A model generated the notes under the pieces. That model ran no database searches and was not told the origin of the DNA. It saw nothing but the letters and a program-made list of their open reading frames with translations. A DNA stretch of 13,733 nucleotides. Origin: Candidatus Iainarchaeum sp. (lineage in GTDB: Archaea > Iainarchaeota > Iainarchaeia > Iainarchaeales > CSSED10-239). The position numbers and the translations under genes are program-made. Below are positions 1 through 13,585 of this stretch, in pieces. Each line of letters opens with the position of its first letter. Within the stretch, counting starts at the first letter, position 1. The stretch is from positions 1 to 13,733 of the forward strand of contig JAQVTI010000016.1 in the NCBI GenBank assembly GCA_028700115.1, written 5' to 3'.

Positions 1-2
1 GT

Positions 3-260
3 ATTACTTCTTATGATATTTTGACTAATTTAAATAGTTTAAGTTATAAAGATGTTTTTTTAATAAATAAAAATTATGATACTAGTGATGGAATTGGTGC
101 TTTTTATAGTGATAGAGGGGATAATATGGGTGATCGTGCCTTTCTTGTGGGTGGTGGTTGGAGCGATGGTTCTTATGCCGGGGTTCTATCTCGGGATTTG
201 TTCTATGGTCCTTCGTTCCGGAACTATAGGATCGGCTTTCGGTGTGTAGTAGTTCCATAA
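3..260 (+). CDS. 3' end of a longer gene whose 5' end lies off-window: C-terminal C-type-lectin / FGE-sulfatase-like domain protein, candidate DGR target
   Basis: The frame is open from the window edge (ATT ACT TCT TAT GAT ATT precede the track's TTG at 21 with no stop), so the 79-aa ORF is a fragment. The C-terminus GGGWSDGSYAGVLSRDLFYGPSFRNYRIGFRCVVVP* fits the GGxW...R...P-xx-R-xxx-[IV]GFRC scaffold of SUMF1/FGE-type CLec folds. Stop is TAA at 258-260. Confidence 0.6.
   Translation: MTSYDILTNLNSLSYKDVFLINKNYDTSDGIGAFYSDRGDNMGDRAFLVGGGWSDGSYAGVLSRDLFYGPSFRNYRIGFRCVVVP
114..257 (+). other. Candidate DGR variable region (VR): a compositionally aberrant, adenine-depleted 3' end of the CDS
   Basis: Hand count for nt 141-240: 50 G+C and only 11 A per 100 nt. 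This compares with 20% GC in nt 21-100 of the same ORF and 14% GC in nt 301-400. Arg codons here are AGA, CGT, CGG, CGG, AGG and CGG, while orc1/cdc6 in this window uses AGA almost exclusively. Many codons have the NNY form (AGC GAT GGT TCT TAT ... GAT .. TTC TAT GGT ... AAC TAT), as expected if they were templated by AAY codons. No TR or RT is visible in the window. Confidence 0.4.
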
Positions 261-297
261 AAAAGGATTTGATATTTTTGTCTTATAAATTTTTATT

Positions 298-804
298 TTA
301 TTTTTCATTTTTTATATATTCTAAAAATAATATAAATATTATTATTCCAAATATAAACCATAAACTAATATGTGCTATTTTTGCAAGTTTATAACTAATT
401 TTTTTTGCTAAGACTATAAAAATTATTCTTAATAAGTTTATTTTTAATAATATAAATAAAATTAATATATTTTTAATTATTTTTTTATTATATTTTTTTT
501 TAATATTTTGGTATATGCTACTACTACTTTGGTTTTTAGTAGATATTTTAGGTTTACTCTTTTTTTTTGAAAGATGATAGGCTATAATTAAACCAAAAAA
601 TAAACTAATGGTTAAAATACCACTACATTCAGGCACAAAAATAAATCCATTTAAATTAATTATTTTTCCAAATAATAAGTTTATTATTTTTTCTTCAAGA
701 AATATTAATTTTTTACCTATACTTAATATTAATATTTTTGATAATAATAAATATGTTATTATAAAAATTAATATGAATTTTATATATTCTTTATATTTTT
801 TCAT
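298..804 (-). CDS. Short exosortase/archaeosortase-family membrane protein (mini archaeosortase-like)
   Basis: 168 aa and polytopic. Three family-like motifs lie at helix ends in the expected order: VPECSGIL (Cys60), KINLLRII (Arg126) and AHISLWFIFG (His145). A K/S-rich loop (KKKSKPKISTKNQSSSS) lies between the Cys and Arg helices. ATG start at 804. Confidence 0.6.
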   Translation of the reverse strand: MKKYKEYIKFILIFIITYLLLSKILILSIGKKLIFLEEKIINLLFGKIINLNGFIFVPECSGILTISLFFGLIIAYHLSKKKSKPKISTKNQSSSSIYQNIKKKYNKKIIKNILILFILLKINLLRIIFIVLAKKISYKLAKIAHISLWFIFGIIIFILFLEYIKNEK

Positions 805-938
805 AATAAGATATATTGTCTAAAAAGTATATATTTGTTTTGTATAATTTTATTTTTTATAAATATTTATAGTAATCTAAAATATTTTTTTTGCTTAGAA
901 ATGAAGTTATTTTGTAATTTAAATTTATCTAAAATATA

Positions 939-1631
939 TTAGATTATAATTGTATAAATTATAATTATTATAATTCCTGTAATTAAAGTAGATATAAAAT
1001 TATTCCAATTATTATTTATTTTTTGATTTTTATTTTCAATTATAGCTCCAGTAAAACTATCTATTAATGATCCAATAATTCCAGAAATAGATATTAATAT
1101 AATAAATAAATAATTATATTCTATAATTATGAAAAATATTGCAGTTATTAAAGATCCTAATAAAGCTCCAATTATTCCAATTAAACTAATTGCCCCATTT
1201 GTTCCTTTTTTTACTTTTTTAAAAGTATTAATCATTCTAGGGTTTTTTATAGATAATAATCCGATTTCAGAAGAAAGTGTATCTGAAAATGCTGCAGAAA
1301 TTGTAGCAAGTGAAGCAATTATAAACATTTCTAGATTTACATATAATAATTTGTTTAAAATAAATCCTGTTATAAAAATTACAAGACTTGCCCCACAGTT
1401 TCCTAATACATTTTTATAATCTCTTTTTCCATGTTTTTTGTTTAATATCATTGTAATTATTTCTGCAATTCCAAAAAACATTATAACATATATTACTGCA
1501 TATATATCTATAAAATATAAAAATATACTACATACAATATATACTATAGAAATAGTAAATAAATCATACTTTCTAGTTATATTTAAAAATAATCCTATTA
1601 GTATGAATATTAAAAAATATAAAAAAAACAT
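939..1631 (-). CDS. DUF92 / TMEM19-family integral membrane protein
   Basis: 230 aa, multi-TM. Motifs match DUF92 (PF01940) as I recall it: NVLGNCGASLVIF, AAFSDTLSSEIGLLS (the ADTWASEIG-type motif), KKGTNGAISLIGIIGALLGSL and GSLIDSFTGAIIE. Confidence 0.75.
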   Translation of the reverse strand: MFFLYFLIFILIGLFLNITRKYDLFTISIVYIVCSIFLYFIDIYAVIYVIMFFGIAEIITMILNKKHGKRDYKNVLGNCGASLVIFITGFILNKLLYVNLEMFIIASLATISAAFSDTLSSEIGLLSIKNPRMINTFKKVKKGTNGAISLIGIIGALLGSLITAIFFIIIEYNYLFIILISISGIIGSLIDSFTGAIIENKNQKINNNWNNFISTLITGIIIIIIYTIII

Positions 1632-1641
1632 AAAAGATCAT

Positions 1642-2217
1642 TTAGATTATTTTTGCTCTAACAACCATAATCTTATTTATATAACCAAGTTTTACTAATT
1701 TCTTTTTAAGTTTTTCACAAATTTTTTTATTTAGAATCTCATTCCATGTTTCTGATAATGTTTTTGTAGATATTTCATTTAAAAAATATTCTTCTATTAA
1801 GTTTCTAGATTCTTTTCTTAAAGTTGTTGTAAATTTTGTTCCAGTTATAAAAAGTGTTTTTAATTTTAGTTTTACTCCATCTTTTGTAGTTACATAAATT
1901 ATATTATCGATTTTAGATTTTCCTCTTCTTGCAAGTCTTTTTATATTTCCTGGTTTTGTATTAAATTCTTGCAATTTTGTTTCTGCTTTTGTTGCAGTTA
2001 CTTTATCAATTTTAAATAATAGAGTGTATGCAGAGTCTCTAAAACTATTTGTAATTTGATCAAGAGTTTTTTTAATAGTTCTTCCAACTAGTTCTTTACT
2101 ATCAAGTGCAACTGTTTTTCCAATTTCTTTATTTTCAAAAACAGAATCTGATTCTATAATATACCATTTTTTCTTTTTCCAGTTATCTACTGTTTTTTTT
2201 TTATTTACTTTTGCCAT
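1642..2217 (-). CDS. rps3ae: 30S ribosomal protein S3Ae (eS1)
   Basis: 191 aa. The N-terminus MAKVNKKKTVDNWKKKKWYIIESDSVFENKEIGKTVA is typical of archaeal S3Ae. A GGTG sits about 9 nt upstream of the ATG. Confidence 0.92.
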   Translation of the reverse strand: MAKVNKKKTVDNWKKKKWYIIESDSVFENKEIGKTVALDSKELVGRTIKKTLDQITNSFRDSAYTLLFKIDKVTATKAETKLQEFNTKPGNIKRLARRGKSKIDNIIYVTTKDGVKLKLKTLFITGTKFTTTLRKESRNLIEEYFLNEISTKTLSETWNEILNKKICEKLKKKLVKLGYINKIMVVRAKII

Positions 2218-2241
2218 GTATTCTACACCATTTTATTAATA

Positions 2242-2655
2242 TTATTTAATTAGTAATTTTGCTGTTTCTTTTGAATATCTCCAATTTTGAGGTATTTTTC
2301 CTTCTTTTATATAATATTTTTTAAGTCTATTTATTTTAGATACAGTTAATTGATATCCTCTTTTTGCAGATGTATCTTTTTTATTTATATCTTGATGTTT
2401 TAATAAAGTTACTGCTTTTTTTATTAATGCCATTAAGTCATCTGGTAATTTATCTGAACTAATTACTTTTAATTCTGTTTGTATTTGTGTAATTCTTTTA
2501 CCAATTGTTTTTTTTGTGTTTTTTATATTATTTTTTTTAAGTTCTAGTCCAATTAACGCAGCTGGAGTTGCTTTTTTACTCATTTCTTCTATTTTAGAAT
2601 AGATTTCTTCTTTTCCAAATTTATTTTCTTTTGTTTTTTCTACCATATTAATCAT
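2242..2655 (-). CDS. rps15: 30S ribosomal protein S15 (uS15; S15P/S13e)
   Basis: 137 aa. The C-terminal half HQDINKKDTSAKRGYQLTVSKINRLKKYYIKEGKIPQNWRYSKETAKLL matches the archaeal S15P/S13e signature. The true start may be the second ATG at 2646 (MVEKT...), which lies 9 nt after an AGGT. Confidence 0.9.
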   Translation of the reverse strand: MINMVEKTKENKFGKEEIYSKIEEMSKKATPAALIGLELKKNNIKNTKKTIGKRITQIQTELKVISSDKLPDDLMALIKKAVTLLKHQDINKKDTSAKRGYQLTVSKINRLKKYYIKEGKIPQNWRYSKETAKLLIK

Positions 2656-2803
2656 ACCTTTTAAATTTAATTTATATAGAATTATTTGATTTTTTTAAAA
2701 TAATTTTGTTTTTAAAAAAAAATATAGTTATATAATATATATTATTATTGCGATTACTTTATATATATTTTTATTTTGAAAAATAAATTTTTTTACAGAA
2801 TTT

Positions 2804-3373
2804 TTATAAATACCTACCTCTTTTTTCAATTTCTTTTATCTTTTCTAATATTTTTTTATTTTTAGTATTTTCTATATACCCTTTTTTTATTTCTATCCAT
2901 ATTTTTTCAGTTTTTTTATTACTTAGTAAGGTTTTTTTGAATACTAATAAATCTGTTGCTTTATCTTCTATTTTATTTGTTGTTGTTGCAAGTCCAAAAT
3001 CAATAAAATAAATATTTTTTTTATAAGTAATTATATTTATTAAATTTAAATCTCCATGCATTATATTATTATCATGCATTTTTGAAATTTCTTGACCAAT
3101 TTTTTTAGCTTGTTTTATATGAGTATTATTATTTTTTATATATTCCATAATTATTTTATCTTCTGATACATAATATATATAAGGAGCATTTAATCCTATT
3201 TGTTTTATTTTTTTTAATATATTTGCTTCTTCTTTATTTCTTTGTTTTATAATTTTTTGATTTAATATTTTGTTTCTATATTCTTTATATATTCTTTGTT
3301 TAATAATTACATCTTGTCCAAATATTTTTGTTTTAAATATTTTTGCTTCTGCTCCATAACTAATTTGTTTCAT
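2804..3373 (-). CDS. bud32: Bud32-type small atypical protein kinase (KEOPS subunit, Kae1-associated kinase)
   Basis: 189 aa. It has a glycine-loop-like ISYGAEAKIF, a VIIKQR lysine, a catalytic HGDLNLINII (HGDLTTSN-type) and IDFGLA. Size and domain truncation are typical of stand-alone archaeal Bud32. Confidence 0.85.
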   Translation of the reverse strand: MKQISYGAEAKIFKTKIFGQDVIIKQRIYKEYRNKILNQKIIKQRNKEEANILKKIKQIGLNAPYIYYVSEDKIIMEYIKNNNTHIKQAKKIGQEISKMHDNNIMHGDLNLINIITYKKNIYFIDFGLATTTNKIEDKATDLLVFKKTLLSNKKTEKIWIEIKKGYIENTKNKKILEKIKEIEKRGRYL

Positions 3374-3876
3374 TAACTATCACAAATAGGGTTTTTTTTA
3401 ATTTCTGATTTTAATAATAGAAAATCATAGTTTGTTTCTAAGTCATATATATATTTATCCCAAAAAATATATTTAATATATTCTTTATTATCTTCTTCTT
3501 CTTTAAATAATGCTAATACTTTATTTTTTTTAAGATAAATTGTTTCTGTTTTTAATAAATATTCTTTAGATATACAACCATTTCCATAACTTAAATTTAA
3601 TTTATATATTTTTTCAAGTTCTTTATTTGATTCTATAAATTTTATATATTCAATTATTGCTTCTGCTGCAGTTTTATTTTTGGATTCTGATAAAAGTGCA
3701 ATATATTCTATATTATCTTCAGAATATAATTTATTTTCAGAAATATTATAATTTTTATTTATTTTTTGAATTTGTTTAAGATCATTTATTTTTATTTGCT
3801 GTGTAATTATACAAATAAATATAATAATTACAATTATTATTAATAATTCTCCAATAAAGCTGTTTTTTTTATCCAT
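3373..3876 (-). CDS. Hypothetical protein with an N-terminal membrane anchor
   Basis: 167 aa. One N-terminal hydrophobic helix (FIGELLIIIVIIIFICIIT) is followed by a soluble K/E/N-rich domain. Its stop overlaps the bud32 start (TAATG, 1 nt shared at 3373). I recognise no family. Confidence 0.6.
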   Translation of the reverse strand: MDKKNSFIGELLIIIVIIIFICIITQQIKINDLKQIQKINKNYNISENKLYSEDNIEYIALLSESKNKTAAEAIIEYIKFIESNKELEKIYKLNLSYGNGCISKEYLLKTETIYLKKNKVLALFKEEEDNKEYIKYIFWDKYIYDLETNYDFLLLKSEIKKNPICDS

Positions 3877-3951
3877 TTTTATTTACCTTTTTTTCAAATT
3901 GTTTTTATATTTATATATTTCATTTTAAAAGTCTTTTTATTCTTTTTTATT

Positions 3952-4572
3952 TTATAATTTTTTAATAATTTCTATTATTTTGGAATTAATTTTTTTTTTT
4001 ATAATTTGTTCTTCAAGTTTTATTTTTAATTGAGCAATTTTATGTTCTGCATTTTTTTCTTTAAATTCTTGTTTTTTTTTACTATAATCTCCAATTTGTG
4101 AATTTTTATAAACTATTGAATTATTTATTGTTTCTTTTAATTTTTGTCTATAATCTGGATCTATTAAAAAAGTATTAAATAAATTTTTATATTGTGGATC
4201 CATTAAAACTATATCTTCTAATTTAGATTCTTGTAAATCTTTTTTGTATTCTTTGTCTACTAAACTTTTTATTTTGTGTTTCCAAAATTTTTTATTTAAT
4301 AACATATATAAAGGTATAATTTTATGATATTTATGTGCGTTATTTTTTTCTTTTTGCCAATAGTGTATATTTTTTTTTAGTTCTTTAATTTTTTTATTTA
4401 TATATTCTGTTTCTTCTTTTAACTCTTTTATTTCAGGATATATTATTTTATTATTTTTTATTTGCATTGTTTTTTTTTTGAAAAATAAATCTATATATTT
4501 TTTATTTTCTGAATTTATTTTTTTTTTTAAAAACTCTTCTAAATCTTTAGTTTTATTAATTGTATTTTTCAT
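3952..4572 (-). CDS. Hypothetical lysine-rich, probably coiled-coil protein
   Basis: 206 aa, ATG start, no TM segment. K/E-rich stretches at both ends (KELKEETEYINKKIKELKK; AQLKIKLEEQIIKKK) look helical. I recognise no family. Confidence 0.5.
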   Translation of the reverse strand: MKNTINKTKDLEEFLKKKINSENKKYIDLFFKKKTMQIKNNKIIYPEIKELKEETEYINKKIKELKKNIHYWQKEKNNAHKYHKIIPLYMLLNKKFWKHKIKSLVDKEYKKDLQESKLEDIVLMDPQYKNLFNTFLIDPDYRQKLKETINNSIVYKNSQIGDYSKKKQEFKEKNAEHKIAQLKIKLEEQIIKKKINSKIIEIIKKL

Positions 4573-4698: not shown

Positions 4699-5049
4699 GT
4701 GATAAATATGTTTCCAAATATGGGTGGATTAGATCCAAGACGAATGCAAAGTATGATGAAGCAAATGGGTATTGAAAATAAAGAAATTTCCGCAAAAAGA
4801 GTAATTATAGAAACTAATGATTCTAAAATAATTATCTTAGAACCTCAAGTTACAAAAATAACTATGCAAGGACAATCTTCTTTTCAAATATCTGGAGATA
4901 TTCAAGAAAGTAAAGAATTAATTATTCCTCAAGAAGATATAGATATGGTTTCAACTCAAGCAAATATTTCAAAAGAAAAAGCAAAAAAGCTTTTAGAAGA
5001 AACAAAAGGAGATATTGCTAAAGCAATTTCTCTAATTGATTTAGATTAA
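4699..5049 (+). CDS. nac: Nascent polypeptide-associated complex protein (archaeal NAC, NAC domain plus C-terminal UBA)
   Basis: The sequence includes LDPRRMQSMMKQMGIE, a NAC beta-core (RVIIETNDSKIIILEPQVTKITMQGQSSFQISG) and a UBA-like tail (EDIDMVSTQANISKEKAKKLLEETKGDIAKAI). The GTG at 4699 has GGAG 5 nt upstream; an alternative ATG is at 4708. Confidence 0.9.
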   Translation: MINMFPNMGGLDPRRMQSMMKQMGIENKEISAKRVIIETNDSKIIILEPQVTKITMQGQSSFQISGDIQESKELIIPQEDIDMVSTQANISKEKAKKLLEETKGDIAKAISLIDLD

Positions 5050-5054
5050 TTTTT

Positions 5055-6353
5055 TTATTTTTCTATTTTTCCAAGTTGTGCTAAAATTATTTCAGTTCTT
5101 GAAACATATGCTTGTAAATTTAGGTTAAATTTAATTTTATTAATATCTTCTGGATAATCTAACCATGCTTCTGTAAATTGGTCTTTATAGTTGTATGTAA
5201 TTTCTTTTATTGTTATTTCTGATATATTAAATATACCTTTTTTCTTTATTTTTTCTAATTTTATTCCTAAATTAATTAATTTTTGTTTATTTTCTTCAAT
5301 TTCAGAATCATTTATTATAATTTCTATTTTTGTATATGGTTTTTCTAGAATTTCAGTTATATTTTCTAATTTAAGTTTTTCTATAATTTCATTATATTTG
5401 TTTATATTTAAATCATTTAATGTTATTTCTAATATATTTTCATCAATTATGTATTTTTCTGTATTATTTTCATTTTCTTCTTGTTTTATTATGAATTTAT
5501 TAACATCTTCTATATTTTTATTATTTATATTTAGTTTTATTTTTTTAATATCATTAAATGAAATTTCTATATTTTTATCTAATGCTTTTTTGATTGTATT
5601 TTCATCAATTTGGTTTTCTATTTCTTTTTTAAATATATATAAATAACTTTCTTCAAAATGATCTATTTCTAAATTTATATCGTCAAAAAGTAGTTGAGGT
5701 TGTGCTGTTATATTTTGTGTTTCTAAGAATAATATTGTTGTAGGTGTATCTTTTTTAAATATTACTTGTAATTGTCCATTTACATTGTCTTCTATTTGTG
5801 TTTCTATTCCTATAATTGCTTCTGCTCTCCCAGTTGTAAAATAATATGTTTTACTAATATTTTTATCAGATATAAGTTCTATTTCTTCATCTGGCAAATA
5901 AATTGTAGCATTTTTATAAAATTCAGTAGTTAAAAAATATTCTATTTGGGTAATATTTTCTAAAATTTCTTTTTCTTTATTAATATCATTTATTTTAAAT
6001 CTTGAAATTACAATAAATTCATTTCCATCAATATTATAATTTACTCCTTCTAAATTTATTTCTTTATTTTTAAGTAACTCTTCTTCAATTTTGGTTTTAT
6101 CATATTCATTTGTTGTTGCTATTAATATATATTGTGGATAAATATTTGCAATTTCTGCATTTATTTGTGCAAAATAATTTTCTTCAGTATGTTCTTCTAC
6201 ATCTATATTATTTTGATCAGAATTATTTAAATTTTGTCTAATATTTTCTGTTCTATCTCCTCCCATTAAAGCCATTCCAAAAATAGATCCTACAAAAAGA
6301 ATCACTACAATTATTGAAAATATGTTTTCTGTATTCCATTTCATTTTTATCAC
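5055..6353 (-). CDS. Hypothetical signal-anchored, acidic extracytoplasmic protein
   Basis: 432 aa. An N-terminal helix (IFSIIVVILFVGSIFGMALMGG) is followed by a long E/N/I/K-rich domain with no recognisable motifs. The track start is GTG at 6353; ATG at 6344 (MKWNTEN...) is an equally plausible start. Confidence 0.65.
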   Translation of the reverse strand: MIKMKWNTENIFSIIVVILFVGSIFGMALMGGDRTENIRQNLNNSDQNNIDVEEHTEENYFAQINAEIANIYPQYILIATTNEYDKTKIEEELLKNKEINLEGVNYNIDGNEFIVISRFKINDINKEKEILENITQIEYFLTTEFYKNATIYLPDEEIELISDKNISKTYYFTTGRAEAIIGIETQIEDNVNGQLQVIFKKDTPTTILFLETQNITAQPQLLFDDINLEIDHFEESYLYIFKKEIENQIDENTIKKALDKNIEISFNDIKKIKLNINNKNIEDVNKFIIKQEENENNTEKYIIDENILEITLNDLNINKYNEIIEKLKLENITEILEKPYTKIEIIINDSEIEENKQKLINLGIKLEKIKKKGIFNISEITIKEITYNYKDQFTEAWLDYPEDINKIKFNLNLQAYVSRTEIILAQLGKIEK

Positions 6354-6476: not shown

Positions 6477-7448
6477 ATGACAAATGTAAAAATAGGGAAT
6501 ATTTCTATTAAAAAAAAAGGTGTATTAGGACCTATGTTGGAATATACTACTCATCCATATAGACTTTTATGTAATGAATATGATTGCGGTCTTTGTTTTT
6601 CTGAAATGGTTTATATCAATCAATTAGTTTATGCACCTGAAAGTTTAAATAATTCTTCTCTTCTAAATTCTTCAAAAAAAGATTCTCCATCTGCCTTTCA
6701 ATTAGTAGGTGATTTTTCTGATTCTGTTCTTTCTTTAAAGGCTGTAGAGTTTATAGATAATTATAACTTTTTTGATATTATTGATTTTAATACTGGTTGT
6801 CCATCTAATAGAGTTATTAATGGGAATTCTGGTTCAGGTCTTTTAAAAAATATTGATTCTATTCTTTCAACTTTAAAAAATGCAAAAGGCATTTCAAAAA
6901 AACCTATTACTGTTAAAACAAGACTTGGATTTGATAAGGTTGATATTTTTAATAATGTTGAAAAATTAGTAAATACAGGTATTGATGCTATTACTATTCA
7001 TGCAAGAAAAGCAATTGATAGTAATAATATTTCTTCTGATTATAATATTGTTAGGAAATTAAAAAAAGAGTTTTCTTTACCAATAATTTATAATGGAGAT
7101 ATTACTGATGATAATTTTTTTGAATTTTTTGATTTTGATTTATTAATGGTTTCTAGAAATGCTTTAGGAAATCCTTTTGTTTTTAAAAAAATTAATTATT
7201 TTGAAAAAAAAAATTCTTTTTTAGAAAAAAATTTTCTAGAAAATTTAAATGCTCTTAAAAGATTTCATGAAATTGAAAAAAAAAATCCAATTAATTTTGT
7301 TAAAAAAAAAAATATGGCTTTACAATTTATTAAAGATTTTCAAGGGGCTTCTTTTTTTAGAAATAAAATTTGTGTTTCTAAATCTGATTCTGATTTAGAA
7401 AAAATTTTTATAGAAATAGAACATAAATTATTAGAGTTACAGCAATAA
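6477..7448 (+). CDS. dus: tRNA-dihydrouridine synthase (Dus family, TIM-barrel flavoenzyme)
   Basis: Dus motifs occur in order: LGPMLEYTTHPYRLLC, FSEMV, FQLVGDF, IDFNTGCPSNRVINGNSGSGLL (catalytic Cys), ITVKTRLG, AITIHARKA and IIYNGDI. Confidence 0.85.
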   Translation: MTNVKIGNISIKKKGVLGPMLEYTTHPYRLLCNEYDCGLCFSEMVYINQLVYAPESLNNSSLLNSSKKDSPSAFQLVGDFSDSVLSLKAVEFIDNYNFFDIIDFNTGCPSNRVINGNSGSGLLKNIDSILSTLKNAKGISKKPITVKTRLGFDKVDIFNNVEKLVNTGIDAITIHARKAIDSNNISSDYNIVRKLKKEFSLPIIYNGDITDDNFFEFFDFDLLMVSRNALGNPFVFKKINYFEKKNSFLEKNFLENLNALKRFHEIEKKNPINFVKKKNMALQFIKDFQGASFFRNKICVSKSDSDLEKIFIEIEHKLLELQQ

Positions 7449-8154
7449 TCCATATAATTATTGAAAAATTTGTATAAACTTTTTTAATCATCCAAATTAT
7501 TCCAAATATGATTTCTTTAAAAAAATTAATTGTATATGTTCCAATATTTTTAGGATCCTTAAGGTCTTCTAACATTTCAGAAAATAGTTCTTTATTTGTT
7601 TTTTTTCTATCAATAATTTTATCTAGGTCATTAACTTTTCCTTCAATTGCATCTAATTTTATTTTTATATTTTTTATTTCTTTTGTATTTAGTTCTGTTT
7701 TCCAATTTGGAACATATATAGTTTCTATTCCACTAAGAGATATTGTATTTTTTTCTGTAAGATATTTTGAAATTAAATATTTGATTATACTTTGTTCTGC
7801 GCATTCTTCTTTTATTACTGGTTTTTTAATAATTATATTTGTTTTTTCTGTTTTTGGGACATTTAGTTCTTCATATATTTTTGGTTTTGCATATTTAAAT
7901 AGTTCAATAACTTTTTCATTTATAGAGTTATTTACAAGATTAATTGCAATTTGTCCTCTAATATGTTCAAATGAATTATTATTTTTTAAAATATCATAAA
8001 AACAGAATAAGTAAGGGGTAATTTTTAAATAAATGGCTTGTTTTTTTATATCAATGTTTTTATAGCCTTTTTTTTTAAGGCTATTTTTTAAAACATCAAT
8101 TACTTCTTTTGGTCCAATTTTTATTGGAAATCTTTTTTTATTTTCTAAATCCAT
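7408..8154 (-). CDS. Hypothetical protein with a hydrophobic C-terminus (tail-anchor-like), immediately downstream of sepF
   Basis: 248 aa. A soluble N-terminal ~200 aa is followed by a hydrophobic C-terminus (FFKEIIFGIIWMIKKVYTNFSIIIWIIAVTLIIYVLFL*). It starts 7 nt after the sepF stop on the same strand. Its 3' end overlaps the dus 3' end by 41 nt. I recognise no family. Confidence 0.6.
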   Translation of the reverse strand: MDLENKKRFPIKIGPKEVIDVLKNSLKKKGYKNIDIKKQAIYLKITPYLFCFYDILKNNNSFEHIRGQIAINLVNNSINEKVIELFKYAKPKIYEELNVPKTEKTNIIIKKPVIKEECAEQSIIKYLISKYLTEKNTISLSGIETIYVPNWKTELNTKEIKNIKIKLDAIEGKVNDLDKIIDRKKTNKELFSEMLEDLKDPKNIGTYTINFFKEIIFGIIWMIKKVYTNFSIIIWIIAVTLIIYVLFL

Positions 8155-9955: not shown

Positions 9956-11167
9956 ATGGCTGATAATATTTTTTATGAATTTTTAAATCAAGATTCTGTT
10001 TTTATAGATAAAAATAAGATTTCCCCACATTATACTCCAGACAAGCTTCCTTTTAGAGATGATCAAATAAAAGATTTATCTATGTGGCTTTCTCCTGCTT
10101 TAAAATCTCAAAAACCACATAATGTTTTTATTTATGGTAAGGTAGGTACAGGTAAAACTTCTGTTGTAAGGCATGTTGTTAATCAATTAGATCAGATTTC
10201 TATTGAAAACAAATTTCCTCTTTATCCAGTTTATTTAAATTGTAGAAATTATCAAACAAAATATGCTGTTTTATTTTATTGTGTTCAGTTATTTTATCCT
10301 GATAAAAATTTTATTGGTTATTCAAGATCTTTTATTTATGATAAGTTTTTAACATTTATTAAGGATAATAAATTAAATTTTTTAATAATTTTAGATGAAA
10401 TTGATAAAATTAAAGATAAAGAAATTGACGATATAATTTATACTCTTACTAGAAGTAATGATGAGTTATTAGTTGGTTCTGTTTCAATGATTGGGATTTC
10501 AAATAATCTTTTTTTTAAATCTAGACTAGATCCTAGAACTAAAAGTTCATTATGTGAACAAGAAGCTGTATACCCTCCATATAATGCACAAGAACTTAGA
10601 GAAATATTAACTCAAAGAGTAAATGTTGCATTTAAACCAGGGGTTGTAACTTCTTCTGCAATTAATTCTGCAGCAGCTTTTGCTGCAAAAGAATCTGGAG
10701 ATGCAAGAACTGCAGTTATGTTTCTTTTAAAGGCTGGTGAAATTTCTGATAGAGATAAATTAAAACAAGTAACAGATGTAGAAGTTTTAAAAGCTAAGGA
10801 AAAAGTAGAACAAGAAGTTATTAAAAGTATGGTTTTAACTTTACCTGTTCAGTTACAATTAGTTTTGTTAGCAATAACTCATAAATCAGATAATCCAAAA
10901 GGAATATTAAAAATAGATGGTTCTTTTGAAGAAAATGTTTTATATTCTGGAGAAATTTATGAAATGTATTCTTTATTAGCAGAAAAGTATGATGAAAAAC
11001 CTGTTTCTATGAGATGGTTTAGAGAATATATTACAGAACTTGAAACATATGGTTTTATTACAACTATGCAATCTGGAAAAGGTGTTAAAGGTAATACTAC
11101 TTTAATAAAATTAGGTGTTGATTCTAAAACTATTCAAAATTTATTATTAAAAGAGTTTGAGGCTTAA
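9956..11167 (+). CDS. cdc6: Orc1/Cdc6 replication initiator (AAA+ plus winged helix)
   Basis: N-terminus YTPDKLPFRDDQIKDL, Walker A FIYGKVGTGKTS, Walker B LIILDEID, sensor region GISN, GDARTAV, and a C-terminal winged-helix-like region (YITELETYGFITT). Confidence 0.93.
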   Translation: MADNIFYEFLNQDSVFIDKNKISPHYTPDKLPFRDDQIKDLSMWLSPALKSQKPHNVFIYGKVGTGKTSVVRHVVNQLDQISIENKFPLYPVYLNCRNYQTKYAVLFYCVQLFYPDKNFIGYSRSFIYDKFLTFIKDNKLNFLIILDEIDKIKDKEIDDIIYTLTRSNDELLVGSVSMIGISNNLFFKSRLDPRTKSSLCEQEAVYPPYNAQELREILTQRVNVAFKPGVVTSSAINSAAAFAAKESGDARTAVMFLLKAGEISDRDKLKQVTDVEVLKAKEKVEQEVIKSMVLTLPVQLQLVLLAITHKSDNPKGILKIDGSFEENVLYSGEIYEMYSLLAEKYDEKPVSMRWFREYITELETYGFITTMQSGKGVKGNTTLIKLGVDSKTIQNLLLKEFEA

Positions 11168-11187: not shown

Positions 11188-11895
11188 TTATCCAAATAAT
11201 GTTAATTTTAAATATCCAATATATGGTATTTTTCCAATTTTTTTACCAATAAGTCTTTCTATGTTTACGGGATATACATTTAGGCATGGTTTTCTAATAG
11301 TTTGTGTATTTATATCTATTTCACAGTCTTGATCAATTAATTTATTTGTTTCTTGGTTATCTCCTTTTGTAATAACAAATGTACCATCATTTGCTTCTAT
11401 TATTAAAATTATTCTGTGAATTATTGCTTTTCCATTTATATTTGATTTATAAACTACAACATCATATTTATTTTTTATAGCATCTTCTACAAGATATATT
11501 TCTTCATTTATTTTTAATGATTTTACTTCTAATGTTTGATTTTCATATATATATTCTATTTCTGCAAATTCCGCTAAATCTTTATAAGTTATATTATCAT
11601 TTATTTTTACTTTTTGTGCATGTAGATTTTTTGCTCCTGATAAAATTACTATGTCTCCTCTATAAAAAGATGGTTCCATAGATCCAGATACAACTGTTGC
11701 AAAAGGAAGTGTTGTTGCAAGAATTAGTCCTGCTAGTTTATAAATTATAAATGCAAGAATAAATGAATATAATAAATATACAATCCAATATATTATTTTT
11801 ATTTTTAGTTTTTTAGGTTCCCCAAAGTGTTTTAATAAAAATATATCTATATATGTATAAGGGTCTATATATTTTAAATATTTTTTTAGATTCAT
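11188..11895 (-). CDS. Signal peptidase I, archaeal/eukaryal S26B (Sec11) type
   Basis: An N-terminal TM helix is followed by the catalytic Ser box VVSGSMEPSFYRGDIVIL, the His box AIIHRIILI and ITKGDNQETN. The start is 1 nt after the rpoL stop. Confidence 0.85.
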   Translation of the reverse strand: MNLKKYLKYIDPYTYIDIFLLKHFGEPKKLKIKIIYWIVYLLYSFILAFIIYKLAGLILATTLPFATVVSGSMEPSFYRGDIVILSGAKNLHAQKVKINDNITYKDLAEFAEIEYIYENQTLEVKSLKINEEIYLVEDAIKNKYDVVVYKSNINGKAIIHRIILIIEANDGTFVITKGDNQETNKLIDQDCEIDINTQTIRKPCLNVYPVNIERLIGKKIGKIPYIGYLKLTLFG

Positions 11896-12727: not shown

Positions 12728-13585
12728 ATGGTTTTAGAATTAATTACAAATTTTTCAAGATTAAGGCATAGACCTTTTTTAATGTTTTTTGAAGCATTTT
12801 TTATAACTATTATTTCTGTTATTTTTTCTACTTTGCTTTTTCCAAAAGAATTTTGTTCTATTGGTATTCTTGCTTTTATAACTATTGGTATTTTACCTTT
12901 ATTTAATAAACTTTATTCTTATGATTCTTATATTTATAGTTTTAATAGATCTTTTTTTAAAAGGCATGAAAAAATAATTAAATTATTATTTTATTTTTTT
13001 TTAGGTGTTTTTTTAGCATTAGTTTTAATTTTTTTTATATCTTCCCCTCAAATTAAAGAAAAAATGTTTTATACTCAAATTACTGAAGTTTCAGAAATTT
13101 CTGAAATTAGAGCACAAATAACTGGAGATTTTAATTTTAATTCAGTTTCTTCTTTTCAAAAAGCTTTTATAGAGATTTCAAAAAATAATTTAGGAGTAAT
13201 GTTTACTGCGATTTCTTTATCTTTTTTTTATGGGGCAGGAGGTTTATTTTTAATTGTTTGGAATGCATCTATTCTTTCCTTTGTAGTTATTCAAGATATT
13301 CTTTTATCTTTTGCTTCTGTATCGCAAACTGGTATTTTATATTTTTTAAAGGGTATTTTTTATTCTTTTATTAATTTTTTAGGATATTTACCTCATGGTA
13401 TTTTTGAATTTTTAGCATATTTTTTTGCATCTGTTGCAGGTGCTATTTTTGCAAGAGATTTATTTAAAGGTATTTTTTCTACAGAGTTTGCAGGTATTGC
13501 ATTAAAGGATTTTTTATTAATGATTATAATTGCTTTAATTTCTTATTTTTTAGGAGTTTTAATTGAATCTTTGTATTTTTTATAG
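12728..13585 (+). CDS. SpoIIM/DUF95-family integral membrane protein
   Basis: 285 aa, multi-TM. NNLGVMFTAISLSFFYGAGGLFLIVWNASIL and YLPHGIFEFLAYFFASVAGAIFA resemble the stage II sporulation protein M family signature (PF01944). Confidence 0.65.
   Translation: MVLELITNFSRLRHRPFLMFFEAFFITIISVIFSTLLFPKEFCSIGILAFITIGILPLFNKLYSYDSYIYSFNRSFFKRHEKIIKLLFYFFLGVFLALVLIFFISSPQIKEKMFYTQITEVSEISEIRAQITGDFNFNSVSSFQKAFIEISKNNLGVMFTAISLSFFYGAGGLFLIVWNASILSFVVIQDILLSFASVSQTGILYFLKGIFYSFINFLGYLPHGIFEFLAYFFASVAGAIFARDLFKGIFSTEFAGIALKDFLLMIIIALISYFLGVLIESLYFL

Follow-up and report, generated by a model that had tools for sequence, protein, structure and literature searches.

A GC-rich, adenine-poor gene end at a contig edge of a Candidatus Iainarchaeum genome is very probably the variable region of a remote diversity-generating retroelement target

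The stretch of DNA analysed here, which is referred to as the window, comprises 13,733 nucleotides of Candidatus Iainarchaeum sp. (contig JAQVTI010000016.1 of assembly GCA_028700115.1). At its left end an open reading frame (ORF) occupies nt 3-260 of the forward strand in frame 3; it is cut by the contig end, remains open there, and extends over 85 codons to a TAA stop codon at 258-260. This fragment is the NCBI protein MDD3976334.1 (PHN22_04195, partial) from a MAG named 'Candidatus ainarchaeum sp.', and both translation and homology identify it as the 3' end of a target gene of a diversity-generating retroelement (DGR). The encoded C-terminus reads ...GDRAFLVGGGWSDGSYAGVLSRDLFYGPSFRNYRIGFRCVVVP*, and the peptide quoted in the preliminary description of this DNA is indeed the translation of the frame-3 ORF. 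Convergent with the target gene, on the reverse strand at 298-804, lies an unusually short gene of the exosortase/archaeosortase family, which encodes a 168-aa membrane protein (TIGR04178, 28.9 bits at a cut-off of 23). The other genes of the window are archaeal housekeeping genes, namely those for S3Ae, S15, a RIO/Bud32-type kinase, NAC, Dus, SepF, ThiI, Cdc6/Orc1 and an RNA polymerase subunit. In addition, sizeable ORFs that have no significant Pfam or NCBIfam match are located at 3373-3876, 3952-4572, 5055-6353 and 7408-8154 on the reverse strand and at 12728-13585 on the forward strand; one of them encodes a 432-aa protein whose N-terminal part includes a hydrophobic segment.

The ORF at the contig end changes its composition abruptly. 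The GC content is 20% at nt 21-100, 50% at nt 141-240 and 14% at nt 301-400, and the segment 141-240 contains exactly 11 adenines; the recount reproduces all the values that had been counted by hand when the switch was first pointed out. In the whole window, which has 20.3% GC, both the maximum of GC over 100 nt (0.53) and the minimum of the A fraction over 100 nt (0.10) fall in this segment, and a GC content above 0.40 is found at one other spot only, at about 10637-10739. The switch in codon usage that had been claimed together with the composition is confirmed as well. Arg is encoded by AGA 71 times, by AGG seven times and by CGN twice in the 18 other long ORFs of the window, where GC3 is 7%, as against CGT, CGG (three times) and AGG in the last 41 codons of the target ORF, where GC3 is 42%. 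The upstream part of the ORF, at 3-134 of the forward strand, is AT-rich and of native composition, and alignment with two paralogues shows that its protein is near-identical among the three.

The GC-rich end of the gene coincides with a variable region (VR) of 120 nt, located at 135-254 of the forward strand, which can be aligned without gaps to the template repeat (TR) of the DGR of this genome. The TR is a non-coding repeat of 120 nt and lies at positions 1081-1200 of L082, a contig of the sister assembly GCA_028691725.1. The homology begins at CGTGCC (window 135) and ends 4 nt before the stop codon, which replaces the boundaries of about 114-257 proposed earlier. There are 18 mismatches between the two sequences, and 15 of them are at TR adenines (hypergeometric P = 4.4e-9), which is the relationship that had been predicted, namely a near-identical copy that differs from the gene end at its own adenines. 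From the 28 adenines of the TR, 13 are kept in the window VR and 15 are changed, eight to G and seven to T; at the third-position adenines of the TR codons TCA and GGA the changes in the window copy (VR1) are silent. The three mismatches outside adenines, C>G, T>C and C>T at TR positions 96, 102 and 105 (window 230, 236 and 239), are clustered 16-25 nt from the 3' end of the VR, and two of them are synonymous transitions. The translation of the TR is RAFLVGGNWNNGSNAGVLSRNLNNSPSNRNYNIGFRCVVV. The TR sequence was read in L082 and in the Logan contig L083, a second dataset in which it is identical; for the window's own assembly (PHN22) the same TR is inferred from an RT protein that is 100% identical and from DNA that is identical between the window and L002, another contig of the sister assembly.

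Directly after the VR, the 23 nt at 255-277 of the forward strand, CCATAAAAAAGGATTTGATATTT, include the stop codon and equal L082:124-146, which is the sequence after the VR next to the cassette. They are not shared with the TR, which is followed by the unrelated sequence TTTTCCTTTTAGG. These 23 nt are thus an IMH-like target-marking sequence with a putative role in homing, and the contrast with the TR side is the one expected between IMH and IMH*. Beyond the 23-nt flank, the window locus and the cassette VR locus diverge entirely.

On L082, the sister-assembly reading starts with the cassette-proximal VR (1-125). It is followed by an Avd-like ORF as the first accessory gene (321-689), an Avd gene at about 692-1024 (NF033474 DivGenRetAVD, 86.6 bits at a cut-off of 80, with a match to PF22296 bAvd), the TR (1081-1200) and a gene for a reverse transcriptase (RT) at 1411-2472, which contains an RVT_1 domain and the motifs IGNLTSQ ([ILV]GxxxSQ) and YVDD. 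This RT, P0194, was found by a search with the RT of L006, a DGR locus of Ca. Forterrea multitransposorum. It is annotated in 'Candidatus ainarchaeum sp.' as MDD3178412.1 in the sister MAG GCA_028691725.1 and as MDD3975738.1 in the PHN22 MAG, and its closest relatives adjoin TR/VR pairs. MDD3975738.1 is located three genes after the target MDD3975735.1 (P0003) on an 81,820-nt contig of PHN22, the same MAG that holds MDD3976334.1 of the window. The RT that had been predicted to accompany the gene end is annotated in the window's own MAG, and it is of the DGR type. Within the 13.7-kb window no RT domain was detected among the ORFs and no TR-like repeat was detected either, the repeats present there being AT-rich chance matches. 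Extending the contig upstream, which had been recommended as the way to find the TR and the RT, would recover the remainder of the target gene but need not lead to them because the target is remote. Neither the window nor L082 gave a match in Rfam. A second Ainarchaeum RT (P0212, on L084) was considered as the source of a better TR and rejected, since it is part of another DGR, the TR of which is unrelated.

Some features of the cassette and of related loci are recorded here as separate observations. Relative to the TR, the cassette VR of L082 has a 1-nt deletion (TCTCG-ACTTTGA) that leads to a frameshift and a TGA codon, while the PHN22 version (P0003) is intact; the frameshift may belong to a genuine pseudogene allele, or it may have arisen as a consensus artefact where the VR is polymorphic. 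In this archaeal DGR lineage the cassette-proximal VRs are followed by a conserved non-coding module, which is found at L082:150-260 and also immediately after the VRs of L004, L006 and L007, with variants in L014, L022 and L084. Its first part is a run of four tandem units, each about 9 nt long (GACGGGATAGACGGCCAGACGGCAAGACGGG); a GC hairpin, CCTCTTGCCGTAAGGCAAGG, whose loop is GTAA, comes next, and TTTTTGC follows. The GTAA-loop hairpin is nearly identical in L003, and tandem units of the type CCTGGACCACTG are present instead in another sublineage. In the Ca. Iainarchaeum genome represented by L005, two copies of a 261-nt target 3' end (4890-5150 and 11241-11501), about 6.3 kb apart, are 100% identical. 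Both in L005 and in L012 (L012:5579-5695) a VR-like segment is followed by sequence that resembles the post-TR sequence of L004 and L006 (CTCCTTATT...), and this layout may reflect a different cassette arrangement.

Two more partial target proteins are located at contig ends in the same MAG, P0002 on a 30.9-kb contig and P0003 on the 81.8-kb contig. The three paralogues are near-identical over the upstream 50-60 residues, and 12 of their last 40 residues vary. Every one of the 12 varying codons in the stretch covered by the TR sits among the 18 A-containing codons of the TR (40 codons altogether); nine of the corresponding TR codons are AAT or AAC and the others are AGT, TAT and ATC. This agrees well with the earlier expectation of AAY codons at the variable positions. 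Moreover, each residue seen at the 12 columns is reachable from the TR codon by adenine changes alone, VR2 and VR3 (those of P0002 and P0003) being analysed here as protein only. The differences upstream of the VR (A/V, M/I and G/D) lie outside the TR homology and therefore represent ordinary divergence.

All three paralogues are cut at contig ends, two of them at exactly the same residue (SEWLEY...). Other assemblies also break in this region: L002 ends at window 85 and the Logan contig L001 at window 250. The paralogues have in common both the coding sequence upstream and a stretch of 36 nt around the stop codon that is longer than the Logan k-mer. Such repeats explain the breaks at the targets, and near-identical paralogues that break the assembly account for the truncation of all three targets in the MAG. 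The Logan break at window 249 was also considered as a sign of hypervariability, and this was rejected because the 36 nt shared by the paralogues explain a branch in the k=31 graph. The pattern of truncation implies that the upstream repeat common to the targets was collapsed, so that the MAG lacks it and with it the N-terminal two-thirds of the target genes. Apart from the break, L002 is identical to the window at 90-4034; at its ends it differs at one base (window 89) and at nine positions in the last 70 nt (4035-4101), where L002 always has T, and these mismatches look like contig-end artefacts. A codon-degenerate scan of the GTDB representative genomes for the VR/TR pattern gave 0 matches, which indicates that the genome of this species is absent from that collection, and a scan of viral contigs with the 95-aa paralogue found no relatives.

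Taken alone, the 85-aa fragment of the window has no Pfam or NCBIfam match. A profile of the three C-termini retrieved 159 proteins (E <= 1e-3) among 1.84 billion representatives, and in nearly all of these homologues the matching segment is the extreme C-terminus; in GTDB genomes, 230 loci encode relatives. The homologues match FGE-sulfatase (PF03781) with up to 37 bits, the cut-off being 23.3. To this can be added an AF2 model of the homologous domain of P0023, which shares about 41% identity with the window fragment over the length of the latter. The model, obtained from a 72-sequence alignment, has a pLDDT of 95, and its best Foldseek match is TaqVP (5VF4; E = 1e-10, probability 1.0), with FGE and then Mtd among the lower fold matches. 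The best PDB match of the fragment by sequence is the VR of Mtd (residues 337-374), which is weak (E = 0.42). By homology, the end of the window protein is predicted to be the C-terminal part of a domain with the FGE-sulfatase/C-type-lectin fold; the lectin/FGE fold that had been proposed for it gains support through the PF03781 matches of the homologues and the AF2 model of one of them.

Full-length homologues possess an N-terminal archaeal pilin-like hydrophobic signal (PF07790 at 14-22 bits, below the cut-off of 25.2). The targets are probably displayed via this pilin-like N-terminus, and by homology with these proteins surface display and ligand binding can be suggested. The neighbouring archaeosortase-family gene might suggest a functional link, but no sign of one was found. 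The target end ...IGFRCVVVP* contains no C-terminal sorting signal (PGF-CTERM-like motif, TM helix, basic tail), the relatives use the N-terminal pilin-like signal, and the other paralogues have flanks different from the archaeosortase neighbour. The adjacency of the two genes looks coincidental.

The results support the view that the GC-rich, adenine-poor gene end is the VR of a DGR whose TR, Avd and RT sit on another contig of the same genome. With a probability of roughly 0.92, the segment 135-254 is a DGR variable region at the 3' end of a target gene that belongs to a set of at least three paralogues in a DPANN genome, and the window VR belongs to a remote target that is served in trans by the cassette adjoining one of the paralogues. 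How TR and VR are related, what the cassette contains, that it is part of the same MAG and to which fold family the protein belongs are all shown by the data above, and established DGR biology suggests a homing mechanism to go with them. TR RNA would be reverse-transcribed with random misincorporation opposite adenines, and the sequence at the VR 3' end would direct the cDNA to take the place of the VR. The sequence of the VR would in this way be dictated by the TR and not by the codon usage of a host with 20% GC. The scaffold codons of the TR avoid A (for example, CGG and CGT instead of AGA, GCC instead of GCA, GGT instead of GGA), the variable TR positions are AAY, and mutagenesis would have turned 15 of the 28 adenines into G or T, leaving the VR poor in adenine. 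The abrupt switch in composition can be explained by copying of the VR from a TR whose invariant codons are free of A, given that the host prefers AGA, GGA, GCA and ATA.

Foreign composition at a contig end naturally raises other explanations. The assembly could have joined foreign GC-rich sequence to the end of an AT-rich contig as a chimera, particularly as contigs of two other assemblies break within or beside it. However, the same in-frame junction between AT-rich and GC-rich sequence is present in the independent assembly L002 and in two paralogues, homologues from many genomes carry both parts as one domain, and the contig breaks are explained by the repeats of the paralogues, so that an assembly artefact can be dismissed almost completely. 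A lectin-type domain that was acquired horizontally, with its foreign composition persisting and no retroelement involved, would agree with the composition and with a fragment that lacks a Pfam or NCBIfam match of its own. Yet the composition island coincides to the base with the homology to a TR that lies beside the RT and Avd, the differences are adenine-specific, and the RT and accessory genes of the cassette themselves have the AT-rich composition of the host. Acquisition without a retroelement is therefore disfavoured and considered very improbable.

Accepting the segment as a DGR variable region, one may ask whether the window copy is still being rewritten, which is uncertain, with roughly even odds. 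Comparison of two assemblies shows about 10 codon differences in the cassette-proximal VR, which indicates that the element has recently been active in the population, while VR1 is identical in the same two assemblies. A hairpin or cruciform downstream of the VR is seen in several characterised DGRs and is not universal among targets. The cassette VR of L082 has a structured GC-rich module downstream (z = -3.5), whereas window 255-340 folds no better than its shuffles (z = 0.42). Two scans of JGI metagenome contigs, with the VR1-specific flank and with the TR/VR core, gave 0 matches and no extra alleles.

It could be that the window copy is a fossil VR, meaning that a duplicate of the target next to the cassette carried along a diversified VR together with its flank, is no longer rewritten and now undergoes ordinary point mutation, its differences from the TR at adenines being historical. 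On the one hand, the constancy of VR1 beside a changing cassette VR fits this explanation, as does the absence of the GACGG tandem repeats and the GC hairpin of the cassette-proximal VRs after the window VR. The three non-adenine substitutions, with their two synonymous transitions, also point in this direction because they lie near the VR 3' end, in a segment that homing should overwrite; a remote homologue in a related genome, L012, likewise has 6/25 non-A mismatches when compared with the TR of L007. On the other hand, the reading frame continues unbroken across the VR, the 23-nt flank matches that of the active locus at every base though everything beyond it has diverged, the replacements are found only at positions that vary in the paralogues and are A>G or A>T alone, and action in trans on non-adjacent DGR targets is documented (PMC5758913). 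A fossil VR is considered a real possibility that falls somewhat short of an even chance. It is rather unlikely that the remote copy is still rewritten in trans without the module of tandem repeats and GC hairpin that comes after every cassette-proximal VR of this archaeal lineage. If this were nevertheless the case, the three non-A differences would show the point at which the cDNA begins to integrate at remote sites. Recognition of a target by an archaeal DGR would then need nothing beyond the 23 nt that follow the VR, and a single retroelement would generate diversity in a small family of pilin-like lectins that a DPANN episymbiont uses.

Two aspects of the locus have a wider meaning. For the organism, the sequences suggest a small family of hypervariable lectin-fold proteins, which are candidates for attachment to a host or ligand in a reduced DPANN archaeon. 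For the recognition of DGRs, an anomaly of composition at the edge of a contig, even with nothing else to go by, can point to a DGR target that has its cassette elsewhere. The usual criterion in surveys is that the target adjoins the cassette. The window target does not adjoin it; the cassette is located on a different contig, which makes the target remote and does not exclude it. Remote targets are missed by cassette-based surveys (Roux et al. 2021, PMC8144416).

No new mechanism is revealed by this locus, since DPANN DGRs, CLec/FGE targets and non-adjacent targets have already been described (PMC6349945, PMC5758913, PMC8144416); the DGRs of DPANN archaea and CPR bacteria were described by Paul et al. 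(2015, 2017), as cited in PMC6349945 and PMC5758913. Among the closest known systems are the DPANN DGRs of Ca. Forterrea multitransposorum (L004, L006) and Ca. ainarchaeum STF1_257 (L007), which share the order target, two small ORFs, TR and RT, the RT in L006 having 343 aa. The Forterrea RT is 55% identical to the RT of the window genome, the targets belong to the same family, with an FGE-sulfatase domain and a VR at the extreme C-terminus ending in GFRC or GLRC, and the TRs of the Forterrea lineage show the same AAY-codon design as the TR of the window genome. The window VR differs in that it is not beside the cassette, and the Forterrea-lineage TRs are about 73-76% identical to the TR of the window genome. 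Furthermore, the window VR has three non-A mismatches, whereas the cis VRs of the Forterrea lineage and of Ca. ainarchaeum STF1_257 have none. In the closest archaeal loci (L003, L006, L007 and L014) the TR is about 1.1 kb downstream of the VR, and 18/18 or 20/20 mismatches are at TR adenines.

The DGR of Bordetella phage BPP-1 and its target Mtd show a C-terminal VR on the ligand face of a C-type lectin, adenine-specific changes and an Avd, and the same elements are present here. The host in the present case is a cellular archaeon, there are several targets and no GC hairpin directly follows the VR; the sequence similarity of Mtd to the window fragment is not significant on its own. TaqVP of Thermus aquaticus (PDB 5VF4) matches the modelled homologue best in structure, and both have an FGE-type CLec fold with a DGR VR; the TM-score of about 0.5 and the identity of about 20% refer to the P0023 domain and not to the window protein. 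The arrangement as a whole has its counterpart in the remote-target DGRs (Wu et al. 2018, PMC5758913, section 'Non-adjacent target genes'), where one TR and RT are accompanied by one adjacent target and by further targets that keep the sequence at the VR 3' end, as is the case here. There is no categorical difference between those systems and the present one, and the window provides another example of them in an Iainarchaeota-type genome.
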